Shown here: positions 2,478-34,619 of the stretch, in pieces
How the letters are laid out: each line of letters opens with the position of its first letter
How positions within the stretch are numbered: position 1 is the stretch's first letter
Notes under the pieces: model-generated
The model's input: the letters and a program-made list of their open reading frames with translations, nothing else
Database searches by the model: none
What the model was told of the DNA's origin: nothing
Virus record (IMG/VR): IMGVR_UViG_3300042691_015921
DNA: 64,000 nucleotides
Direction: 5' to 3' (one strand)
DNA from: a virus
Position numbers and translations under genes: made by a program

Positions 2478-3419
2478 TTATGCTAGATCAGACACATCTG
2501 TTTTAGACCAAAACTTACAACTCCAATATCTAGCTTTCCATTTTGGTCCTGGGCTAGTATCGCATTGGTGTCTAGCACGGAACCTTTTTCTGCTTTCTGG
2601 ATCATCTCTTTTTATAGACATGTTTGGATCACCAAAGTTTACTTTTACAACATTACCCTTATCATTCTTAACATATACTGAGAACTTTTTTGGACCCTTT
2701 GGCGTTCTAAAGGGTTTATTTAGTTGAACTTTTTTGCCTTTGTTTTCAGCAGCGTACAATGTTGGCATTGCTTCTGTTTCTGGACCTTCCATTTCAGAAG
2801 GTTCTTCTACTTCGTCTTCATCCTCTTCTTCTGAATATTCATCTGTTTTACTAGCATAGAATACAGAGTCAAATATTGCTTCGATATAATGTTCTGCTTT
2901 TGAAATTTTATCTTTAGCCCATTCTTCAAATTCAACGGGAACTGATTCTAAAAGTTTAACAAGCATCATTAATTGTTGATGCATCTTATTAATTTGATTA
3001 ACCTGCATTGAATTATCTTCATCAGATTGTGCCTTTTTCCAAGATGTTGGGTCTGGCCTGTCTTTATCTCCGGGCTTTGCGGGCTTATAATTTTTACCTT
3101 CTCTCTTCTTCTTCTTACGGATGTTTTCCCAAAGTCCAGGCTTTTCATCTTCTCCGATAATATAAACTTCTGGCTGTTCATCAAAATCAAGATATTCCGA
3201 ATCACTAGGAATATAATCTATAATGGATTCAGTTGACCCAAAAGTTTGTTCATAATAGGTATCTTCTACTTGTTGTAGCTGTGACCCTTTTGCTGAACTC
3301 TGGCATACAGCATATCTTTGTGCATTATCTGGATAATCCTTGTTCATTGTAGAATCGCCCATACATCTAGATAAAAAATCTGCCCTGTCTTCATCTTTTC
3401 TTCTTTTTGGAATTGGCAT
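2478..3419 (-). CDS. modular phage protein with alternating basic and acidic blocks (possible internal head protein)
   Basis: short motif blocks (FLSRCMGD; PGLWENIR; WAKDKISKAEHY; LNKPFR...FGDPNM...FRARHQC...ARYWSC) separated by Glu-rich linkers. Confidence 0.6.
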   Translation of the reverse strand: MPIPKRRKDEDRADFLSRCMGDSTMNKDYPDNAQRYAVCQSSAKGSQLQQVEDTYYEQTFGSTESIIDYIPSDSEYLDFDEQPEVYIIGEDEKPGLWENIRKKKKREGKNYKPAKPGDKDRPDPTSWKKAQSDEDNSMQVNQINKMHQQLMMLVKLLESVPVEFEEWAKDKISKAEHYIEAIFDSVFYASKTDEYSEEEDEDEVEEPSEMEGPETEAMPTLYAAENKGKKVQLNKPFRTPKGPKKFSVYVKNDKGNVVKVNFGDPNMSIKRDDPESRKRFRARHQCDTSPGPKWKARYWSCKFWSKTDVSDLA

Positions 3420-3427
3420 AGTTTACC

Positions 3428-3730
3428 TCATAGATCTTTTTCTTTAACGAATACGCCATCAATCATTTTGCCTTTACGATCTTTAATATCATTGTAAGCT
3501 TGCTCTAGGCATTCTTCCAGCGTAATCTTATTTCTTGCGGTTAAATTTAACATAACAACTAACATATCGCCTATATCATCACGAATATCTCGGCCCTTAC
3601 AAACACTATCTGATAATTCTCCAAGTTCTTGTAGCAGTTTTAGAGTTTGATCTTTATCACTACTTCCATCAATTAGATTTCTATCATGGTGCCATGTAAC
3701 TACTTTATCAATCAAATCATTCAAATTCAT
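3428..3730 (-). CDS. MazG-like nucleotide pyrophosphohydrolase
   Basis: KLLQELGEL...DDIGD...AYNDIKDRKG MazG-like signature. Confidence 0.85.
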   Translation of the reverse strand: MNLNDLIDKVVTWHHDRNLIDGSSDKDQTLKLLQELGELSDSVCKGRDIRDDIGDMLVVMLNLTARNKITLEECLEQAYNDIKDRKGKMIDGVFVKEKDL

Positions 3731-7139: not shown

Positions 7140-7799
7140 TCAAGCCGTAAAATAAAGAGATGGCTTTTTGACAAGTTGATCTAAAAATCTCTTAACAACC
7201 CAATTGATGATAGCTGGGAGAAAGAAATATAGCAATATTAAAGCCACGGATGATGATTTTGGCTCTACTTTTTTAGAATTGATTATATTTTCATATACAA
7301 AGTTTTTGCAATCTTGATACAACTGATTTTTGCTTTTTTCATCGCATTGTTTGAAGTCCACTCCTCCATTGCTGGCAAGAGTAGCCCATTCATTTGCATA
7401 ATTCAATGCAAGTTCTGCAACTGTTTTTCTTTTATTGTCTGGATATTGTGTAGCAATTTCTTGTTTTATTTTTTCTAAATTTACAAGAGGAGGGCTTCCA
7501 AATCTTTGTTCACTAGTGTCTTCATTATATGAGAAATTAATATCTGGAAAATGCTTTAGCTTAATTGATCCTCCGTCTTGTCCCAATATTATTCCCTCTA
7601 CTTCTGCCTTAATAGAAAGAAATAATTTCTTTGTTTTTACAGCAGGTAAATTATTTAAGAATAATACTTGAACAGAGTTATCTTTCTTTTCAACTTTAAT
7701 AGTTGTTGAATTTGGAATAAAGATAGAAAATTTTGATATGGAATATCCATTTTTTGAAAAAGCTTGATATATAGCTTCTTTTATTTTAATTAGGTCCAT
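7140..7799 (-). CDS. hypothetical protein with C-terminal hydrophobic segment
   Basis: VALILLYFFLPAIINWVV segment. Confidence 0.65.
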   Translation of the reverse strand: MDLIKIKEAIYQAFSKNGYSISKFSIFIPNSTTIKVEKKDNSVQVLFLNNLPAVKTKKLFLSIKAEVEGIILGQDGGSIKLKHFPDINFSYNEDTSEQRFGSPPLVNLEKIKQEIATQYPDNKRKTVAELALNYANEWATLASNGGVDFKQCDEKSKNQLYQDCKNFVYENIINSKKVEPKSSSVALILLYFFLPAIINWVVKRFLDQLVKKPSLYFTA

Positions 7800-8563: not shown

Positions 8564-8979
8564 TACTTGATCTCAACTTTCTTGCATTGGCATGGTTTGC
8601 AACCGCATTTTGTTTCACATTGGCATGTAGTTTTTGTTGTCATCAAATTGCATTTTCCATCTGGGCAATTTTTAACCTGTGGAAGATCTTGCTTGGAATG
8701 ATATGGGCATGGGGTTGTATGAGTATCTCCATGGATAACTATTCCTGTGCCTTTACAAGCACATTTTTTAGGATCTGGATCGGTAACTGGACCATCATCT
8801 GGTTTTGGAACCGGTAGTATATTATATACTTCCTTTTCAGCAGAGTCAAATGCATTAGATATTTCTAGTCTCCATTTGCTCGCTAGGCTAGAATAATTTT
8901 GCAATATATCTTCGCTAAAACAATTCAATGAATAGCTAGCCAATAGAAATGTCGATATTAGTATTATATTTTTTTTCAT
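8563..8979 (-). CDS. secreted Cys-rich protein
   Basis: signal peptide, CxCKGTG..CPYH, CPDGKC and C-terminal Cys cluster. Confidence 0.65.
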   Translation of the reverse strand: MKKNIILISTFLLASYSLNCFSEDILQNYSSLASKWRLEISNAFDSAEKEVYNILPVPKPDDGPVTDPDPKKCACKGTGIVIHGDTHTTPCPYHSKQDLPQVKNCPDGKCNLMTTKTTCQCETKCGCKPCQCKKVEIK

Positions 8980-29362: not shown

Positions 29363-29435
29363 GTCCCAGGTCCGAGAGTCGAACTCGGCGTGAGTACCTT
29401 ATAAGAGTACGTTGCCAACCGGTTTCCACCTGGGA
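29363..29435 (-). tRNA. tRNA-Ile(UAU) with atypical D arm
   Basis: GTACT-CTTATAA-GGTAC, CCGAG-TTCGACT-CTCGG, TCCCAGGT/ACCTGGGA. Confidence 0.7.
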
Positions 29436-30485: not shown

Positions 30486-30557
30486 CTGTGGGAGGTGGTT
30501 CTGCCCCACCATCTTACACTTTAACAGAGTGCCGCATTACTGTTATGCTATCCCACA
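30486..30557 (-). tRNA. trnN: tRNA-Asn(GUU) with non-canonical T loop (GGCAGAA)
   Basis: TGTGGGA/TCCCACA-G, GCACT-CTGTTAA-AGTGT, GGTGG/CCACC. Confidence 0.8.
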
Positions 30558-30568
30558 AAGATATAAAA

Positions 30569-30641
30569 AGCAAGAGAAGGGAATCGAACCCTCAACTTTC
30601 AGTTTGGAAAACTGACACTCTGCCAATTGAGTTACTCTTGC
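30569..30641 (-). tRNA. trnG: tRNA-Gly(UCC)
   Basis: GCAAGAG/CTCTTGC-U73, TCAGT-TTTCCAA-ACTGA. Confidence 0.92.
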
Positions 30642-30680
30642 AAATCCTATGAAAAGATTTCTCTAATCATAGGAAAAATA

Positions 30681-30893
30681 TCAACGAACCACAGAACGAA
30701 CGCGAGAACCAACCCTACGCAGTCCATTGCGGGTTACTTCTACCGTCTTCTTTGTGACCTGAACTGGAACACGAACTACTTCCTTAGTAGCGGTAACTAC
30801 ACGGTTGCGAAGTCCACAAGTTCCATTAGCACAATCTCCAGCATTTACAGAGCCACAAGCAAGTGCAAATGCTACAACAAGAATATATCTCAT
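30681..30893 (-). CDS. small secreted Arg/Val-rich peptide (Planctomycete-style C-x-x-G-x-C)
   Basis: AGGAGG RBS, signal peptide, GDCANGTC. Confidence 0.7.
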   Translation of the reverse strand: MRYILVVAFALACGSVNAGDCANGTCGLRNRVVTATKEVVRVPVQVTKKTVEVTRNGLRRVGSRVRSVVR

Positions 30894-30924
30894 AGAATCC
30901 TCCTTTAAAAAGTAAAGTTAAAAC

Positions 30925-31088
30925 AAATGCCCGTTTGGATATCAAGGGCGGGCAACCCCCCGTCACTGTCAAGCAGCGAGTGCGTAGGTTTCTACGTCAT
31001 TTAAAATTTGTCTATTTTTAAACTGGCCTTTAGACAAACCAGTACATGCAATTATCTTTTCCATAATCAGTCGATACTTTTCACCCCC
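30925..31088 (-). ncRNA. ssrA: two-piece tmRNA, coding piece; tag ORF 30969-30998 reads (A)DVETYALAA*
   Basis: 5' GGGGGTGAAAAGTATCGAC; pk1 ACTGGTT/GGCCAGT plus TTGTCTA/TAGACAA; TAAAT then resume codon GAC; YALAA end; TGCCCG/CGGGCA 3' stem. Confidence 0.92.
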
Positions 31089-31626
31089 GATAAATTACTA
31101 TAGCCTTTGCAAATTTTATAACATCTTCATCTGAAAATTTATTTCTGGCAAAATTAAACATAACAGATACAAATCTAACATTTCCAATTATATATCCTTT
31201 ATTATTATCAATTCTGTCTAAACTAGCAGAGTTAATATTTAATGGATTTAATTTGTTATCTTGATCCTTATATGTTCTTAAATCTAAAGCAAAACCGGTA
31301 AATGGACAAGTACCATTCTGTGATTCCCAAACATCTTTTAAATGTTCTAAAGTCAAAGAATATTCTTTCTTTTTTCTTCTTTTTGCGTCTCTCAGAAACG
31401 GTTTAAATACACTATATTCATCTTGTTTTTTTGGATTATTCAAATTCCAAACGGGATAGTCCGTTCTATTACTTAATATTCTTTCAGTAGTTTCTGGACT
31501 TTTGCCATAACAAGACAAACAGCAGTAGAATTTGTCCTTTCCCGCTTTTACTTTTCTATTATACTCGCCTTTTTCTTTTTCAAATTCTTTGTTACAAGTA
31601 GCACAAACTAATTTTATTTTTGACAT
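31081..31626 (-). CDS. HNH-type (His-Me finger) homing-endonuclease-like protein within the tmRNA intervening segment
   Basis: N-terminal CxxC..CCxxC finger; QNGTCPFTG, ASLDRIDNNKGY..GNV..V...N; stop codon overlaps tmRNA nt 6-8. Confidence 0.8.
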   Translation of the reverse strand: MSKIKLVCATCNKEFEKEKGEYNRKVKAGKDKFYCCLSCYGKSPETTERILSNRTDYPVWNLNNPKKQDEYSVFKPFLRDAKRRKKKEYSLTLEHLKDVWESQNGTCPFTGFALDLRTYKDQDNKLNPLNINSASLDRIDNNKGYIIGNVRFVSVMFNFARNKFSDEDVIKFAKAIVIYRG

Positions 31627-31690
31627 TTTATCTCCTATTTAGGTTATATATTTTATTATACACCAAAAATGATGGAGATGATCAAAAAAA

Positions 31691-31755
31691 GTGGAGGTGG
31701 AGGCATTGCAGCCTCGTCCTGTGTTATTTCCGAAATAATCTCTACATGTTTAGGC
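31691..31755 (-). ncRNA. ssrA: two-piece tmRNA, acceptor piece (5' boundary approximate)
   Basis: TAAACATGTAGA...CAGGAC-GAGGC-TGCAAT-GCCTC-CACCTCC-A; pairs with GGGGGTG to give G3.U70. Confidence 0.9.
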
Positions 31756-32203
31756 TAAGTTTGAGTCAATAGCCATGACTGTACCTTTTCATTTACTGAT
31801 TTCCGTAATAGATCAATAATTCCAGAAAATTTAAGACTTGTACGATCTGGATTATATTTATCATGATATACTATAGCGAGAAGAATTTGTTCAATTTCCC
31901 ATTCAAGGTCACTCATATTATACTCCCACCAGGGTCTTATCAGTAATTTCTTCCGTCTCATTATTATAGTGGACAAAGAACGAATAACCAATCTTTTTAA
32001 TATTTAGATCCCAAGTCTTGATGTATTCTTCAATCCATACGTCAATTCTATATCGCTCAATATTATCCCTGTTCCAAAGGAAATGGCATCTAGTATTGAC
32101 AATATTTCCTAGATTATTATATCCAACTTTTGACTCTACAAACTCGCTTAACACACTGTTTGGGATCGTGTTCATTCTGTTTCTCCTTGTTGGTGATGCG
32201 TTA

Positions 32204-32231
32204 AGTATACACCATTTATCGTCCATGTCAA
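32204..32231 (-). promoter_or_regulatory. promoter TTGACA-N16-TATACT
   Basis: family consensus; nearest clear promoter upstream of the tmRNA. Confidence 0.75.
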
Positions 32232-32315: not shown

Positions 32316-33272
32316 TTAATCAATTGATGTTGCCTCTCCACCACTTCTTGTGACTAATCCACAAAATACCCTTAAATCGACATCTTGAGAGATTAATCTT
32401 GTGCTACCATCGCACATAACTACTACACACCCTCCGGGATGAAAGCTGTAAAATTCTCCATCATTGCTAGCATTTATTGGCATACCGGCATTTGGTGCAG
32501 CACCTTTAAAACCATCCGGCCTAAAAGCATCTACTTTAAATGGACCAAGATTATCAGCCCAAGAAATACACTGATTAACTGATCCTTGTTCTATTTTACG
32601 CAGTCTATACACATAAGGTCTTGAAACACACTCTCCGACTAATATCGTCTTGCTAGTTCCATCCATAATTGAGGAAAGCTTAGTAACCTTATCTTTATCT
32701 AAGGCACCAACTGATGAATCTCCACCATTGATATAAATATCAGGATCTACTACTTTCTTTTTGACTCCAGTACAGACTTCATAATCAGTGCTTGCCAAAG
32801 ATAGATTTGAAATAGACGGTCTTATGCTATCACTATCTGGACTTGCTGGATAATTATTTAGTTCACCCCTAACTGCACTAGGGCAATAATAAACGCTTAC
32901 TTTTCTCATGGCAGCATTTAAATTATTCTGACTATACCAATGCTCATTCCAGTTATAACTAGATGCTAGATTTCCTTCTTCCATATATGGCATTACTAAG
33001 ACTCTCCAACTATGTTCTACTCCTGATGGATTTCCAACAGGTTTTGGATTCATTTTAGCACTAGCTACCGTATAACATGCGGCCGGTAGATAATTTCTAC
33101 TATCAGCACAATTTAAAAAAGCCAATCCAATTTGTCTTACATTGCTTGAACAATTTGTTCTATTTGCGGCCTCTCTTGCCGCCTGAACCGCCGGAAGTAA
33201 AAGTCCAACTAGTGTTCCAATAATAGCAATAACAACTAATAGTTCAACCAGTGTAAATCCACGTTTTTTCAT
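32316..33272 (-). CDS. DUF1559 domain protein with prepilin-type N-methylation site and H-X9-DG motif
   Basis: [36 protein letters not shown]...C.SN; DGTSKT; [12 protein letters not shown]. Confidence 0.93.
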
Positions 33273-34619
33273 AATCAATCCTTTTTTTAAGTTTAAAAAT
33301 ACAATTATACATTTTATGTATCCCAATAAAAGATGGCAATAATGTTAGAATTTTGTTTAATTACGGATTAAATGCATTTGGCGGGATATCCCTATCCAGA
33401 AACATCCGGCGTTCTTCTCGCAATCCGGCAATTTCTTTTCTTTGAACTCTTATTTCTCTTTTTAGCGAAGCGACATAATCATCTTCATAGATGCTAAATC
33501 CTCCACGACCAACAACTTCAACAATAGCTTTTGTTAAATGCCAAATATCTGCTGTATTATCAGAAACCTTATATAGAGAATCTAGTGTTTTACTTTTTAG
33601 TATTTCGCAGAAATATTGTAGATCGAATAGATCAGCGTCATTCAATTTTGTCATGTATGCCATTCCTCTTTTACCCGCCCAATTAATTCATTGAAAACAA
33701 CATAAGCATCAATATTTCTACATGGTGCCCAATATACTATAGCTTGATCATCCATAGCAAGTTCTGTAGAATAGCAATAATAATGCCATTGATGTATCTT
33801 TCTAATGCTTCCAATAATTGGTCTATTATCTGGCTCAAAAGACCTAAAGATAATATTGTTCGGCCTAGCGTAATAATGAAAGCCTATGAATTCATATTCA
33901 GTATCTTTTGTTTCAAAGACAATCTTGACTCTTGAAGTATCAATCATTATAAACAATTCTTCCCTTCTAGTGGATCATAAATTGAATTAGGCATAACATC
34001 CCATCGTCGCTCGTTTTTTAGGAATTTGATTACATACTGAAAGCACAAGCAGCAAATATCAATATCAAATTTGCTCCCGTCTAAAGGACTACCATATCCC
34101 CACTCCGCCTTAAGAACAGCATAATCTGGTCCAGTCATGTCAGATATTGTACAACTCTTTCCACAGATATCGCACTTAATATCATCGACAACATCTTTTA
34201 GTATCTTCATAGTTATACTCGTCTAGATTAAAGACTTGGCTCATTGTATCATGTAGTTTTGAAATATGCAACTCAAGCAAAACACTCATCCCCGAAAGCA
34301 CATTCACAATTTCATCTTGTGACAAGTCACGTTCCATAACTCCGTGTGCTACACTGTCTAGATTAGAAATAAATGAGTGTAGTTCCATAATTTCGTTTTC
34401 AAGATCAAATCTGTCCTTCATTTGTATTTCCTTTTTTTGGAATTGGTACTGAATTATTATACTTCATAATGAATACTTTTTTATCATTAGCAAATGATTC
34501 TTCACGATAATATAGGTGAATAACATTATCTACCTTAAAACCTAGTGTCTCGCGGTCTTGTTCTACGGCATAGATTCCGCCATCCATCGGTCCACCAACA
34601 CATTCTATAGTTTCATACT

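Follow-up and report, generated by a model that had tools for sequence, protein, structure and literature searches.

Organization of the locus

The stretch of viral DNA considered here (the window, 64,000 nt) is part of a 130.7-kb IMG/VR virus record, IMGVR_UViG_3300042691_015921, which derives from a freshwater phage. It contains what appears to be a circularly permuted, two-piece transfer-messenger RNA (tmRNA) gene, ssrA, with a complete open reading frame (ORF) for a predicted nuclease of 181 amino acids in the segment between the two pieces. All sequence statements on this locus were verified on the minus strand, where the acceptor piece comes first, followed by the ORF and then by the coding piece. 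The original prediction had set out the coordinates, the pairing between the pieces, the pseudoknot PK1, the tag and the overlap of the ORF stop codon with the tmRNA, and every one of these sequence statements is correct. The features are as follows, in the order in which they are read.

31692..31752, minus strand: tmRNA acceptor piece, with the P2 3' strand, T arm, 3' acceptor strand and A73; matches RF00023
31752, minus strand: start of the acceptor piece, TAAACATGTAGA
31715-31711 and 31704-31700, minus strand: T stem GAGGC/GCCTC, with loop TGCAAT
31699-31693, minus strand: 3' acceptor strand CACCTCC
31692, minus strand: discriminator A73
31089..31691, minus strand: intervening segment of 603 nt, outside the mature tmRNA
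31673..31680, minus strand: second CATCTCCA motif, the 5' arm of a predicted hairpin whose 3' arm is the Shine-Dalgarno sequence GGAGAT
31655..31660, minus strand: TATAAT, a -10-like box preceded by TTTTTGGTG, in the loop of that hairpin and with no -35 element
31630..31635, minus strand: Shine-Dalgarno sequence GGAGAT of the nuclease ORF
31081..31626, minus strand: nuclease ORF, 181 amino acids, with a zinc ribbon and a predicted PacI-like His-Me finger
~30920..31088, minus strand: tmRNA coding piece, with the acceptor strand, D-loop analogue, P2, PK1, tag and 3' hairpin; the tag part matches RF01850
31088-31082, minus strand: 5' acceptor strand GGGGGTG, with G1 at 31088
within the coding piece after GGGGGTG, minus strand: D-loop analogue AAAAGTATCGAC
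31043-31007, minus strand: PK1, an H-type pseudoknot formed by ACTGG/CCAGT and TTTGTCTA/TAGACAAA
30998-30969, minus strand: tag frame GAC...GCT TGA, encoding DVETYALAA*, with resume codon GAC at 30998 and stop at 30971-30969
~30962-30920, minus strand: G-rich 3' pseudoknot or terminator-like hairpin followed by a U run

The 5' end of the acceptor piece is uncertain and could lie a few bases further upstream. CCA is not encoded after A73. The stop codon of the nuclease ORF (TGA, 31083-31081) coincides with nt 6-8 of the tmRNA, and the next gene downstream of the coding piece begins at 30893.

Evidence for a two-piece tmRNA

The two pieces are complementary over a 7 bp acceptor stem, GGGGGTG/CACCTCC, which together with G3.U70 and A73 resembles that of tRNA-Ala. 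When the acceptor piece is folded together with the opening 52 nt of the coding piece, RNAcofold recovers this stem along with the T arm and the P2 helices; with pieces of 46 nt and 58 nt the cognate halves form 29 intermolecular pairs, with a difference in free energy (ddG) of -19.2 kcal/mol. When the pieces of different loci are combined in an RNAcofold matrix, the cognate acceptor piece is the best of 14 partners and outscores all 13 foreign pieces. In the comparison with tmRNA covariance models that the original prediction had proposed, each piece is matched, albeit below the cut-offs: in E-value mode RF00023 aligns the 3' part (28.4 bits, E 2e-9; gathering cut-off 47) and RF01850 the tag part (22.6 bits; cut-off 84), and the score for RF04321 is 11.2 against a cut-off of 47. 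These low scores are attributable to the long spacer together with the reduced structure, as relatives with short spacers pass; L008, L009, L011 and L014 exceed the RF04321 cut-off, but L010 also fails despite its short spacer.

The strongest evidence comes from comparison with related loci. Compensatory changes are seen in the acceptor stem (GGGGGTG/CACCTCC, GGGCCTG/CAGGTCC, GGGGATG/CATCTCC), including in loci that bear the ORF, and in two of these (L104, L105) the pair G5-C68 has become A5-U68, with its two halves on either side of the insert. T stems also show compensatory changes among the relatives. PK1 is 13 bp in the window, and pseudoknots of 13-15 bp with differing sequences occupy the same place in 12 loci; the window PK1 is matched by 7 of 100 shuffles, which is modest for any one sequence but convincing across loci. 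The tag frame is intact in every locus checked, with relatives' tags reading DVENYALAA, AEHSFALAA, ADESLALAA and similar. The T stem is a perfect 5 bp, although the T loop, TGCAAT, has 6 nt and lacks TTC, and the D-loop analogue lacks GG. Both loop variants recur in L010 and L117, which lack the ORF, and the TGCAAT loop is found in several other phage tmRNAs, so that these are conserved variants whose function is putative.

We found no smpB gene in the 130.7-kb record, where the original prediction had proposed to look for one, and SmpB would thus have to be supplied by the host. Absence of smpB is usual for phages with tmRNA genes. Judged by its sequence, the window locus is a functional-looking permuted two-piece phage ssrA gene, the alanylation and activity of whose RNA are predictions.

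A predicted nuclease of the PacI type

Pfam contains nothing that significantly matches the 181 amino acid ORF. The ORF does match phrog_3322 (endonuclease) at 3.8e-23, and the further PHROGs matched are of the endonuclease VII and HNH kinds. Among 5.8 billion proteins searched, its family amounts to 105 clusters, all of them unnamed and none with a Pfam domain. The N-terminal part is a conserved zinc ribbon of the form CxxC...CxxxC (C8, C11, C35, C39), similar to those of the MYM and eL24 types, and the C-terminal part has an invariant block, S-L-D-R-I-D...G-Y...N...N, that spans S135-L-D-R-I-D140, Y145, N149 and N158.

The AlphaFold model (predicted local distance difference test score 90.7) has strands at 133-138 and 150-154 and a helix at 155-161, which together make up a beta-beta-alpha-metal fold. 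The top structural match is PacI (PDB 3ldy; Foldseek probability 1.0, E 8e-3; VIA-align Z 7.5 over 109 residues), followed at Z 4-6 by many HNH domains, among them Gme HNH, Cas9 HNH, McrA, Cap5 and T4 endonuclease VII; as a set these matches are moderate in strength (Z 4-7.5). When solved structures were searched by profile, PacI came out as a non-significant match (E 0.036-0.6), and matches to HisF and symplekin in profile searches were discarded as spurious alignments to the SLDRI..GY string.

The end of the first strand, where the catalytic His would be expected, is occupied by Arg138, which is invariant in 61 family members, while Y145, N149 and N158 are likewise invariant and N158 lies at the helix start in the position of the metal-binding Asn. 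PacI (His-Me finger group 20) shares the absence of the catalytic His, a Tyr in the omega-loop and the metal-binding Asn at the start of the helix, and in this type of His-Me finger the omega-loop Tyr takes over the role of the His (PMC5714182). By analogy Y145, which lies in this loop, may substitute for the catalytic His, its equivalence to the PacI Tyr being taken from position and not from superposition. The two proteins differ in that their sequence identity is 12-19% and that the window protein has the additional N-terminal zinc ribbon. As modelled, then, the protein belongs to the HNH superfamily and represents the PacI type of His-Me finger, in which the His is absent, and nuclease activity is plausible by the same analogy. 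The description of this protein in the original prediction as HNH-type holds at the level of the superfamily, although it is not a canonical H-N-H protein but a PacI-like one (SLDRID...Y...N...N).

Association with tmRNA 3' ends in phages and bacteria

Related loci were retrieved through the nuclease protein alone. Among the 15 closest viral loci the nuclease gene adjoins a tmRNA 3' end in 14, and the 15th (L042) is cut by the end of its contig. In five of them (L028-L032) the tmRNA gene is permuted and the ORF occupies its spacer, and in nine (L033-L041) it is a standard one-piece gene with the ORF behind its 3' end. A further eight contexts were obtained from other assemblies, and a tmRNA 3' end is adjoined in six: four are permuted genes with the ORF (L104, L105, L106, L111), in L107 the ORF comes behind a standard tmRNA, and one has an acceptor-like piece after the ORF (L109), the remaining two being unrelated. 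Since loci fetched by protein homology alone share these RNA features, the RNA anatomy described above is more than chance.

Bacterial homologues, full-length and 35-44% identical, are found 65-130 nt behind the chromosomal tmRNA gene in Rivularia, Calothrix, Scytonema and Oscillatoria, and in some metagenome-assembled genomes of Verrucomicrobiota and Neomarinimicrobiota. According to ARAGORN, a tmRNA on the same strand ends 65-130 nt before the ORF in ~31 of 46 bacterial loci. Of 61 genomes sampled from a single cyanobacterial family, 9 have the gene beside chromosomal ssrA, two with fragments; short fragments of the nuclease gene are seen in G022 and G008. Several cyanobacterial copies (G001:C1:2717847-2718806 and others) are open frames of 330-357 amino acids with two successive matches to the family, and these may be tandem domains or a fusion.

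More distant homologues (30-40% identity), which have no N-terminal zinc ribbon, lie ~30 nt upstream of tRNA-Arg(TCT) in L043, L044, L045, L048, L049, L050 and L055 (tRNA positions in loci of this type, ~3290-3470), and the wider family thus seems to be linked to tRNA and tmRNA genes generally. Going by these neighbourhoods, the family to which the window protein belongs is nearly always encoded directly behind a tmRNA 3' end and is thus tied specifically to the ssrA 3' flank, in phages as well as in some bacteria. As this flank is the spacer in a permuted gene, the nuclease gene lands within the spacer there. The spacer had been proposed as the niche of the element, and it is indeed occupied, but the element is not specific to spacers and sits also behind standard genes and chromosomal ssrA.

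Three of the viral loci have additional features. In L040 (3520-3800) and L041 (3600-3900) the nuclease gene is succeeded by another nuclease-like ORF, so that the two lie in tandem; the additional ORF is Cys-rich in one region and has an LDHDH motif as in endonuclease VII. L033 (2580-3620) has a tmRNA gene of standard order but with the reduced anatomy of the two-piece type, its nuclease clusters with those of permuted genes, and a third copy of AACCTCCACTTAAT is present directly after the ORF stop; it may be intermediate between the standard and permuted forms of the gene.

Occupied and empty alleles

There are ten occupied permuted loci (the window, L028-L032, L104-L106 and L111), and all ten have matching acceptor halves with G3.U70 and an intact PK1 and tag frame. 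Occupied spacers measure 603-618 nt (603 in the window, 604-618 in L028-L032), as compared with 29 nt in L009, 29 nt in L117, 36 nt in L008 and 48 nt in L010, which are permuted alleles without the ORF. The closest relative, L010, has the same gene order, lies behind a syntenic DUF1559 gene and has an acceptor piece of the same length and register as that of the window. Its acceptor stem (GGGCCTG/CAGGTCC) and T stem (TTGGC/GCCAA) show compensatory changes, its PK1 differs in sequence from that of the window yet is complementary, and its tag is DVENYALAA.

The relationships of the tmRNA and of the nuclease are not the same. The three nearest relatives of the window tmRNA (71, 67 and 66% identity) all lack the ORF, whereas the nearest relatives of the window nuclease (65-67% amino acid identity) live in tmRNAs that are merely 57-60% alike. 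Contigs with outer flanks that cannot be aligned nevertheless share 83-97% identity over the cassette of tmRNA and ORF, where flank identities from global alignment have a noise floor of ~70-78% and indicate only that the flanks are not alignable. The best-conserved DNA of the cassette is the leader of the nuclease gene. On the nuclease tree the contexts (permuted, standard, tRNA-Arg, other) require just three changes, so switches of context are rare. The sporadic distribution is of the kind expected for a homing endonuclease gene.

The original prediction had called for ORF-less related phages, and L008, L009, L010 and L117 answer to this description, although none is an allele of the same phage. 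Comparison of ORF-bearing with empty loci by blastn gave no near-identical occupied and empty pair, so that conversion tracts and exact insertion boundaries are not mappable. A stricter pattern search of metagenomes yielded two true relatives, L115 (the same sequence as L010) and L117, together with L116 at a contig end. The coding-piece pattern TGAAAAGTATCGANTGNTT was discarded, as its matches in viral contigs are mainly chance ones within a protein gene, and among 50,697 phage records blastn found only short chance matches to the region.

A second kind of nuclease gene also neighbours phage tmRNA genes: in L008 (6390-6450, minus strand) a different ORF, of the canonical HNH kind with C-terminus ...CANCHREIH, ends directly upstream of the acceptor piece. 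On the minus strand of L015 there is an element like an acceptor piece, GGACAGGGCTGCAATGCCCTCACTTCCA, ending at 7711 of the reverse complement, with no recognisable coding piece within 900 nt downstream; this may represent a tRNA-like domain on its own or a very long spacer.

The leader of the nuclease gene

In every cassette a second motif of the form C(A/G)(C/T)CTCCA lies 11-15 nt past the true acceptor end and is followed by a T run, a TATAAT-type box, the Shine-Dalgarno sequence and ATG. The motif, T run, box and Shine-Dalgarno sequence are lacking in the empty alleles, and the TATA-type box is conserved across the aligned leaders. Minimum free energy folds pair the motif with the Shine-Dalgarno region and leave the -10-like box in the loop in 13 of 13 phage leaders, and the arms are complementary though their sequences differ (ACGATCTCCAT with ATGGAGATTGT, CGCCTCCATT with AATGGAGGTTG, TTCCACCTTTCATAG with CTATGGAGGGTGGA). 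Compared with dinucleotide shuffles, the hairpin of the window has a z score of only -1.7, whereas four relatives reach -5.2 to -7.2 and a cyanobacterial locus has -3.9. In the cyanobacterial loci the same hairpin carries a U run and resembles an ssrA terminator.

The original prediction had suggested that CATCTCCA is an insertion scar. Its occurrence in all cassettes and its pairing with the Shine-Dalgarno sequence make it more likely to be a regulatory arm, and its likeness to the acceptor strand may arise from both being CCUCC-type sequences. By analogy with the autorepression site of I-TevI, it is possible that the motif serves as an operator. The TATAAT box is a probable internal promoter, notwithstanding that a two-hexamer promoter scan makes no call there, for want of a -35 element; we rejected a reading of TGGTGTATAAT as an extended -10, the TG being one base out of register. 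A hairpin that sequesters the ribosome binding site, combined with a promoter whose own transcripts escape it, is known for I-TevI, I-TevII, I-TevIII, segB and mobE (PMC2988022).

Neighbouring genes and other RNA genes

Upstream of the tmRNA locus a promoter scan identifies the following element, directly past the terminator of a DUF1559 gene.

32204..32231, minus strand: strong sigma-70-like promoter, TTGACA, 16 nt spacer, TATACT

This is a candidate start for the transcript of the acceptor piece. The DUF1559 gene, encoding a protein with an N-terminal methylation motif, is located at 32316-33326 (minus strand) in the window and at 6023-7021 in L010. The DUF1559 family is typical of Planctomycetota, and its presence upstream of the tmRNA hints at a host from that phylum; a DUF1501 gene lies near the L106 locus. 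The window also has ribonucleotide reductase and sugar-modification genes. It contains 8 tRNA genes in total, ARAGORN and Rfam finding 7 each with 6 shared: that at 30486-30557 (minus strand) is matched by Rfam at 49.3 bits and absent from the ARAGORN list, and tRNA-Ile(tat) at 29363-29434 is in the ARAGORN list and absent from Rfam.

Two further viral contigs with standard tmRNA genes contain other RNAs of interest. In L007 (1-353) a GOLLD RNA (RF02032, 224 bits) adjoins the tmRNA gene. L018, a 267-kb contig whose tmRNA has the TGCAAT T loop, has two adjacent tRNAs with CTA anticodons (8650-8806), labelled Pyl by ARAGORN, that are probably amber suppressors.

Discussion

We consider it probable that the window contains a permuted phage ssrA gene whose discarded spacer hosts a free-standing gene of the homing endonuclease type, with no intron involved. 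This was the core of the original prediction, a permuted phage tmRNA with an HNH-superfamily gene in its spacer forming an intron-free selfish element, and the comparative data support it. In this model the nuclease would recognise and cut alleles without the ORF at their conserved tmRNA 3' end or close to it, and repair would copy the gene in, as in the intronless homing of T4 SegB or MobE. Within a permuted gene the ORF would subsequently be removed at the RNA level by processing of the tRNA type, with RNase P acting at G1, 3' trimming and CCA addition at A73, and no splicing would be required. In the read-through precursor, pairing of CATCTCCA with the Shine-Dalgarno sequence would keep translation low, and transcripts from the -10-like box in the loop, lacking the CATCTCCA arm, would be translatable.

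Because the ORF and G1 leave no space between them for a promoter, the coding piece must derive from an RNA that includes the ORF, and would be excised from it. The ORF stop codon would always be on the tmRNA side of the RNase P cut, and in 10 of 10 permuted loci it forms part of the mature tmRNA (nt 6-8 in seven, nt 25-27 in L032 and L106, nt 34-36 in L104). With the stop codon so placed and none before G1, cleavage by RNase P would leave the nuclease mRNA non-stop, and the self-limiting circuit suggested in the original prediction is a logical, if hypothetical, consequence of this anatomy. A bolder reading, to which we give little credence, couples the nuclease to the tmRNA: the non-stop nuclease would be tagged for proteolysis, possibly by its own tmRNA, and the internal promoter would drive the coding piece, locking the selfish gene in. 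Bolder still is the extension that breaks made by ssrA-flank nucleases helped to create permuted phage ssrA genes, for which the arrangement in L033 might be cited.

A number of observations weigh against the interpretation of the locus as a permuted tmRNA gene hosting a mobile nuclease gene. Neither ARAGORN nor Rfam at its gathering thresholds calls a tmRNA in the window, and its T loop and D-loop analogue are non-canonical. The predicted nuclease has Arg138 where the canonical catalytic His would be, and its activity, target site and homing are predictions. The pattern of presence and absence may reflect repeated loss, which could give the same pattern as gain, and neither an ORF-less allele of the same phage (in the stricter metagenome pattern search) nor deletion joints or loose ends at the locus (in the metagenome runs compared) were found. 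The leader hairpin of the window is weak, with a 6-bp closing stem and the z score of -1.7 given above, and RNAalifold finds no consensus pairs in a crude alignment of leaders, in which the two arms do not line up; for this reason the leaders were folded one by one. The only signal in RNA libraries, a contig of 167 nt within the ORF from a single run, could stem from DNA carry-over and is not proof of transcription.

We have considered several other explanations, the simplest being that assembly has joined unrelated pieces. All that speaks for this is a break in the contigs of one run, X6, at the second CATCTCCA motif (31672-31680; ends at 31671, restarts at 31681), which could be a graph branch arising from a variant or a short repeat, and which run X18 spans. 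The stretch is present in 18 DNA runs from freshwater and other metagenomes, contigs from three runs span both junctions with zero differences (acceptor/ORF at 31491-31857; ORF/G1 at 31033-31240 and 30600-31671), and nine other independent contigs share the occupied permuted architecture, so that misassembly, which the original prediction had named as a refuting outcome, is not supported; the chance of an artefact is negligible. Nor does it seem at all probable that the insertion killed ssrA and that the halves are decaying remnants of a pseudogene, notwithstanding that gene finders miss the tmRNA, that its loops are non-canonical and that CCA is not encoded. The same loops are present in ORF-less L010 and L117 and in other phage tmRNAs, the acceptor halves co-vary across the insert in L104 and L105, cognate halves pair best, and PK1 and the tag frame have survived in all ten ORF-bearing permuted loci.

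A different possibility is that the locus consists of two transcription units, with the acceptor piece ending near the U run past A73 and the nuclease mRNA and coding piece both made from the internal -10-like box, so that there is no excised spacer. This departs from the explanation we prefer only in how the RNA is produced. The position of the U run directly after the acceptor end, the conserved TATAAT box before the ORF and the strong conservation of the leader would all fit, and homing endonuclease genes of T4 often carry promoters that serve downstream host genes (PMC2988022). However, scans call no terminator at the acceptor end and no promoter there, the -35 being lacking, and ORF-less alleles have no room for a second promoter, which argues that a single precursor is ancestral; we regard two units as possible but on the whole unlikely. 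It is also conceivable, though distinctly improbable in our view, that the protein is not selfish but has an accessory role at ssrA and is retained beside the gene on that account. It might, for example, bind DNA or RNA or act as a nuclease, and so control how the tmRNA is expressed or processed, or protect the ssrA 3' end, where islands and prophages frequently integrate. The tight linkage to tmRNA 3' ends across phages and distant bacteria at 35-45% identity, the missing catalytic His and, again, the conservation of the leader are consistent with such a role. Set against them are the presence of the gene in just 9 of 61 cyanobacterial genomes, in some as fragments, although ssrA is universal, the intact appearance of closely related tmRNAs without the ORF, a regulatory design like that of known homing endonuclease genes, and the fact that the nearest solved fold, PacI, is an active His-less nuclease.

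The locus combines two known kinds of element, a permuted tmRNA and a free-standing nuclease of the homing type. Two-piece tmRNAs in phages have been published, with 53 counted in phage genomes in the paper on the OM43 phage Melnitz (PMC9004378), and the suggestion that the whole arrangement is undescribed does not extend to them; the gene in the spacer does appear to be undescribed. With the permuted tmRNAs on record (Rfam RF04321, RF01850 and RF01849; the Caulobacter type; Melnitz; PMC9004378, PMC11915505) the window gene shares the order of acceptor piece, spacer and coding piece, the joining of the halves by the acceptor stem and P2, PK1, a tag ending in ALAA and an expected maturation by tRNA enzymes. 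It differs in having a 603 nt spacer with a protein gene where published spacers are short, in the single pseudoknot of its downstream part, in its TGCAAT T loop and in falling below every curated cut-off. A tmRNA database paper of 2025 reports a tRNA-Ala gene in a spacer, termed 'unique', and a longest gene of 1152 bp with a repeat element in its spacer, and places LAGLIDADG genes solely in group I introns of the T loop (PMC11915505). Such introns resemble the window locus in that a tmRNA gene harbours a nuclease gene of the homing type, of which the RNA is freed after transcription, as would also happen in the window. The nuclease family and position are different, however, and the window has no intron or ribozyme; its ORF would instead be cleared as RNase P and 3' trimming form the natural ends of a split RNA.

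Among free-standing nucleases the likeness is to T4 SegB (GIY-YIG, in a tRNA cluster; PMC2330249) and MobE (HNH, with intronless homing; PMC2988022), which are also encoded by stand-alone genes between conserved RNA-gene sequences in a large phage, are patchily distributed among relatives and have a ribosome binding site hairpin with an escaping promoter. Here, however, the family is that of a predicted PacI-like His-Me finger with a zinc ribbon, the site is the ssrA 3' flank inside a permuted RNA gene, the ORF extends into the first nucleotides of the mature tmRNA, and the activity is a prediction. Our literature search, whose coverage was incomplete and does not prove absence, found nothing on a nuclease gene in a tmRNA spacer or on a nuclease family of the ssrA flank; what appears to be undescribed is the link to ssrA at the level of the family and the exit route through RNA processing.

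The finding of a reduced tmRNA with a long occupied spacer explains why ARAGORN and Rfam miss tmRNA genes of this kind, and the unannotated PacI-like family of 105 clusters is a candidate source of new rare-cutting enzymes. If the nuclease and tmRNA are coupled in the manner outlined above, the locus would be a test case linking RNase P processing, non-stop mRNA and trans-translation. Selfish nuclease genes hide in self-splicing introns or inteins within essential genes, or else lie between genes. As an RNA that is naturally made in two pieces allows a protein gene to be removed by processing of tRNA ends, the arrangement proposed here would, if true, constitute a third, splicing-free way of living inside a gene, in which a protein gene resides in an RNA gene and is cleared by ordinary tRNA-end processing.

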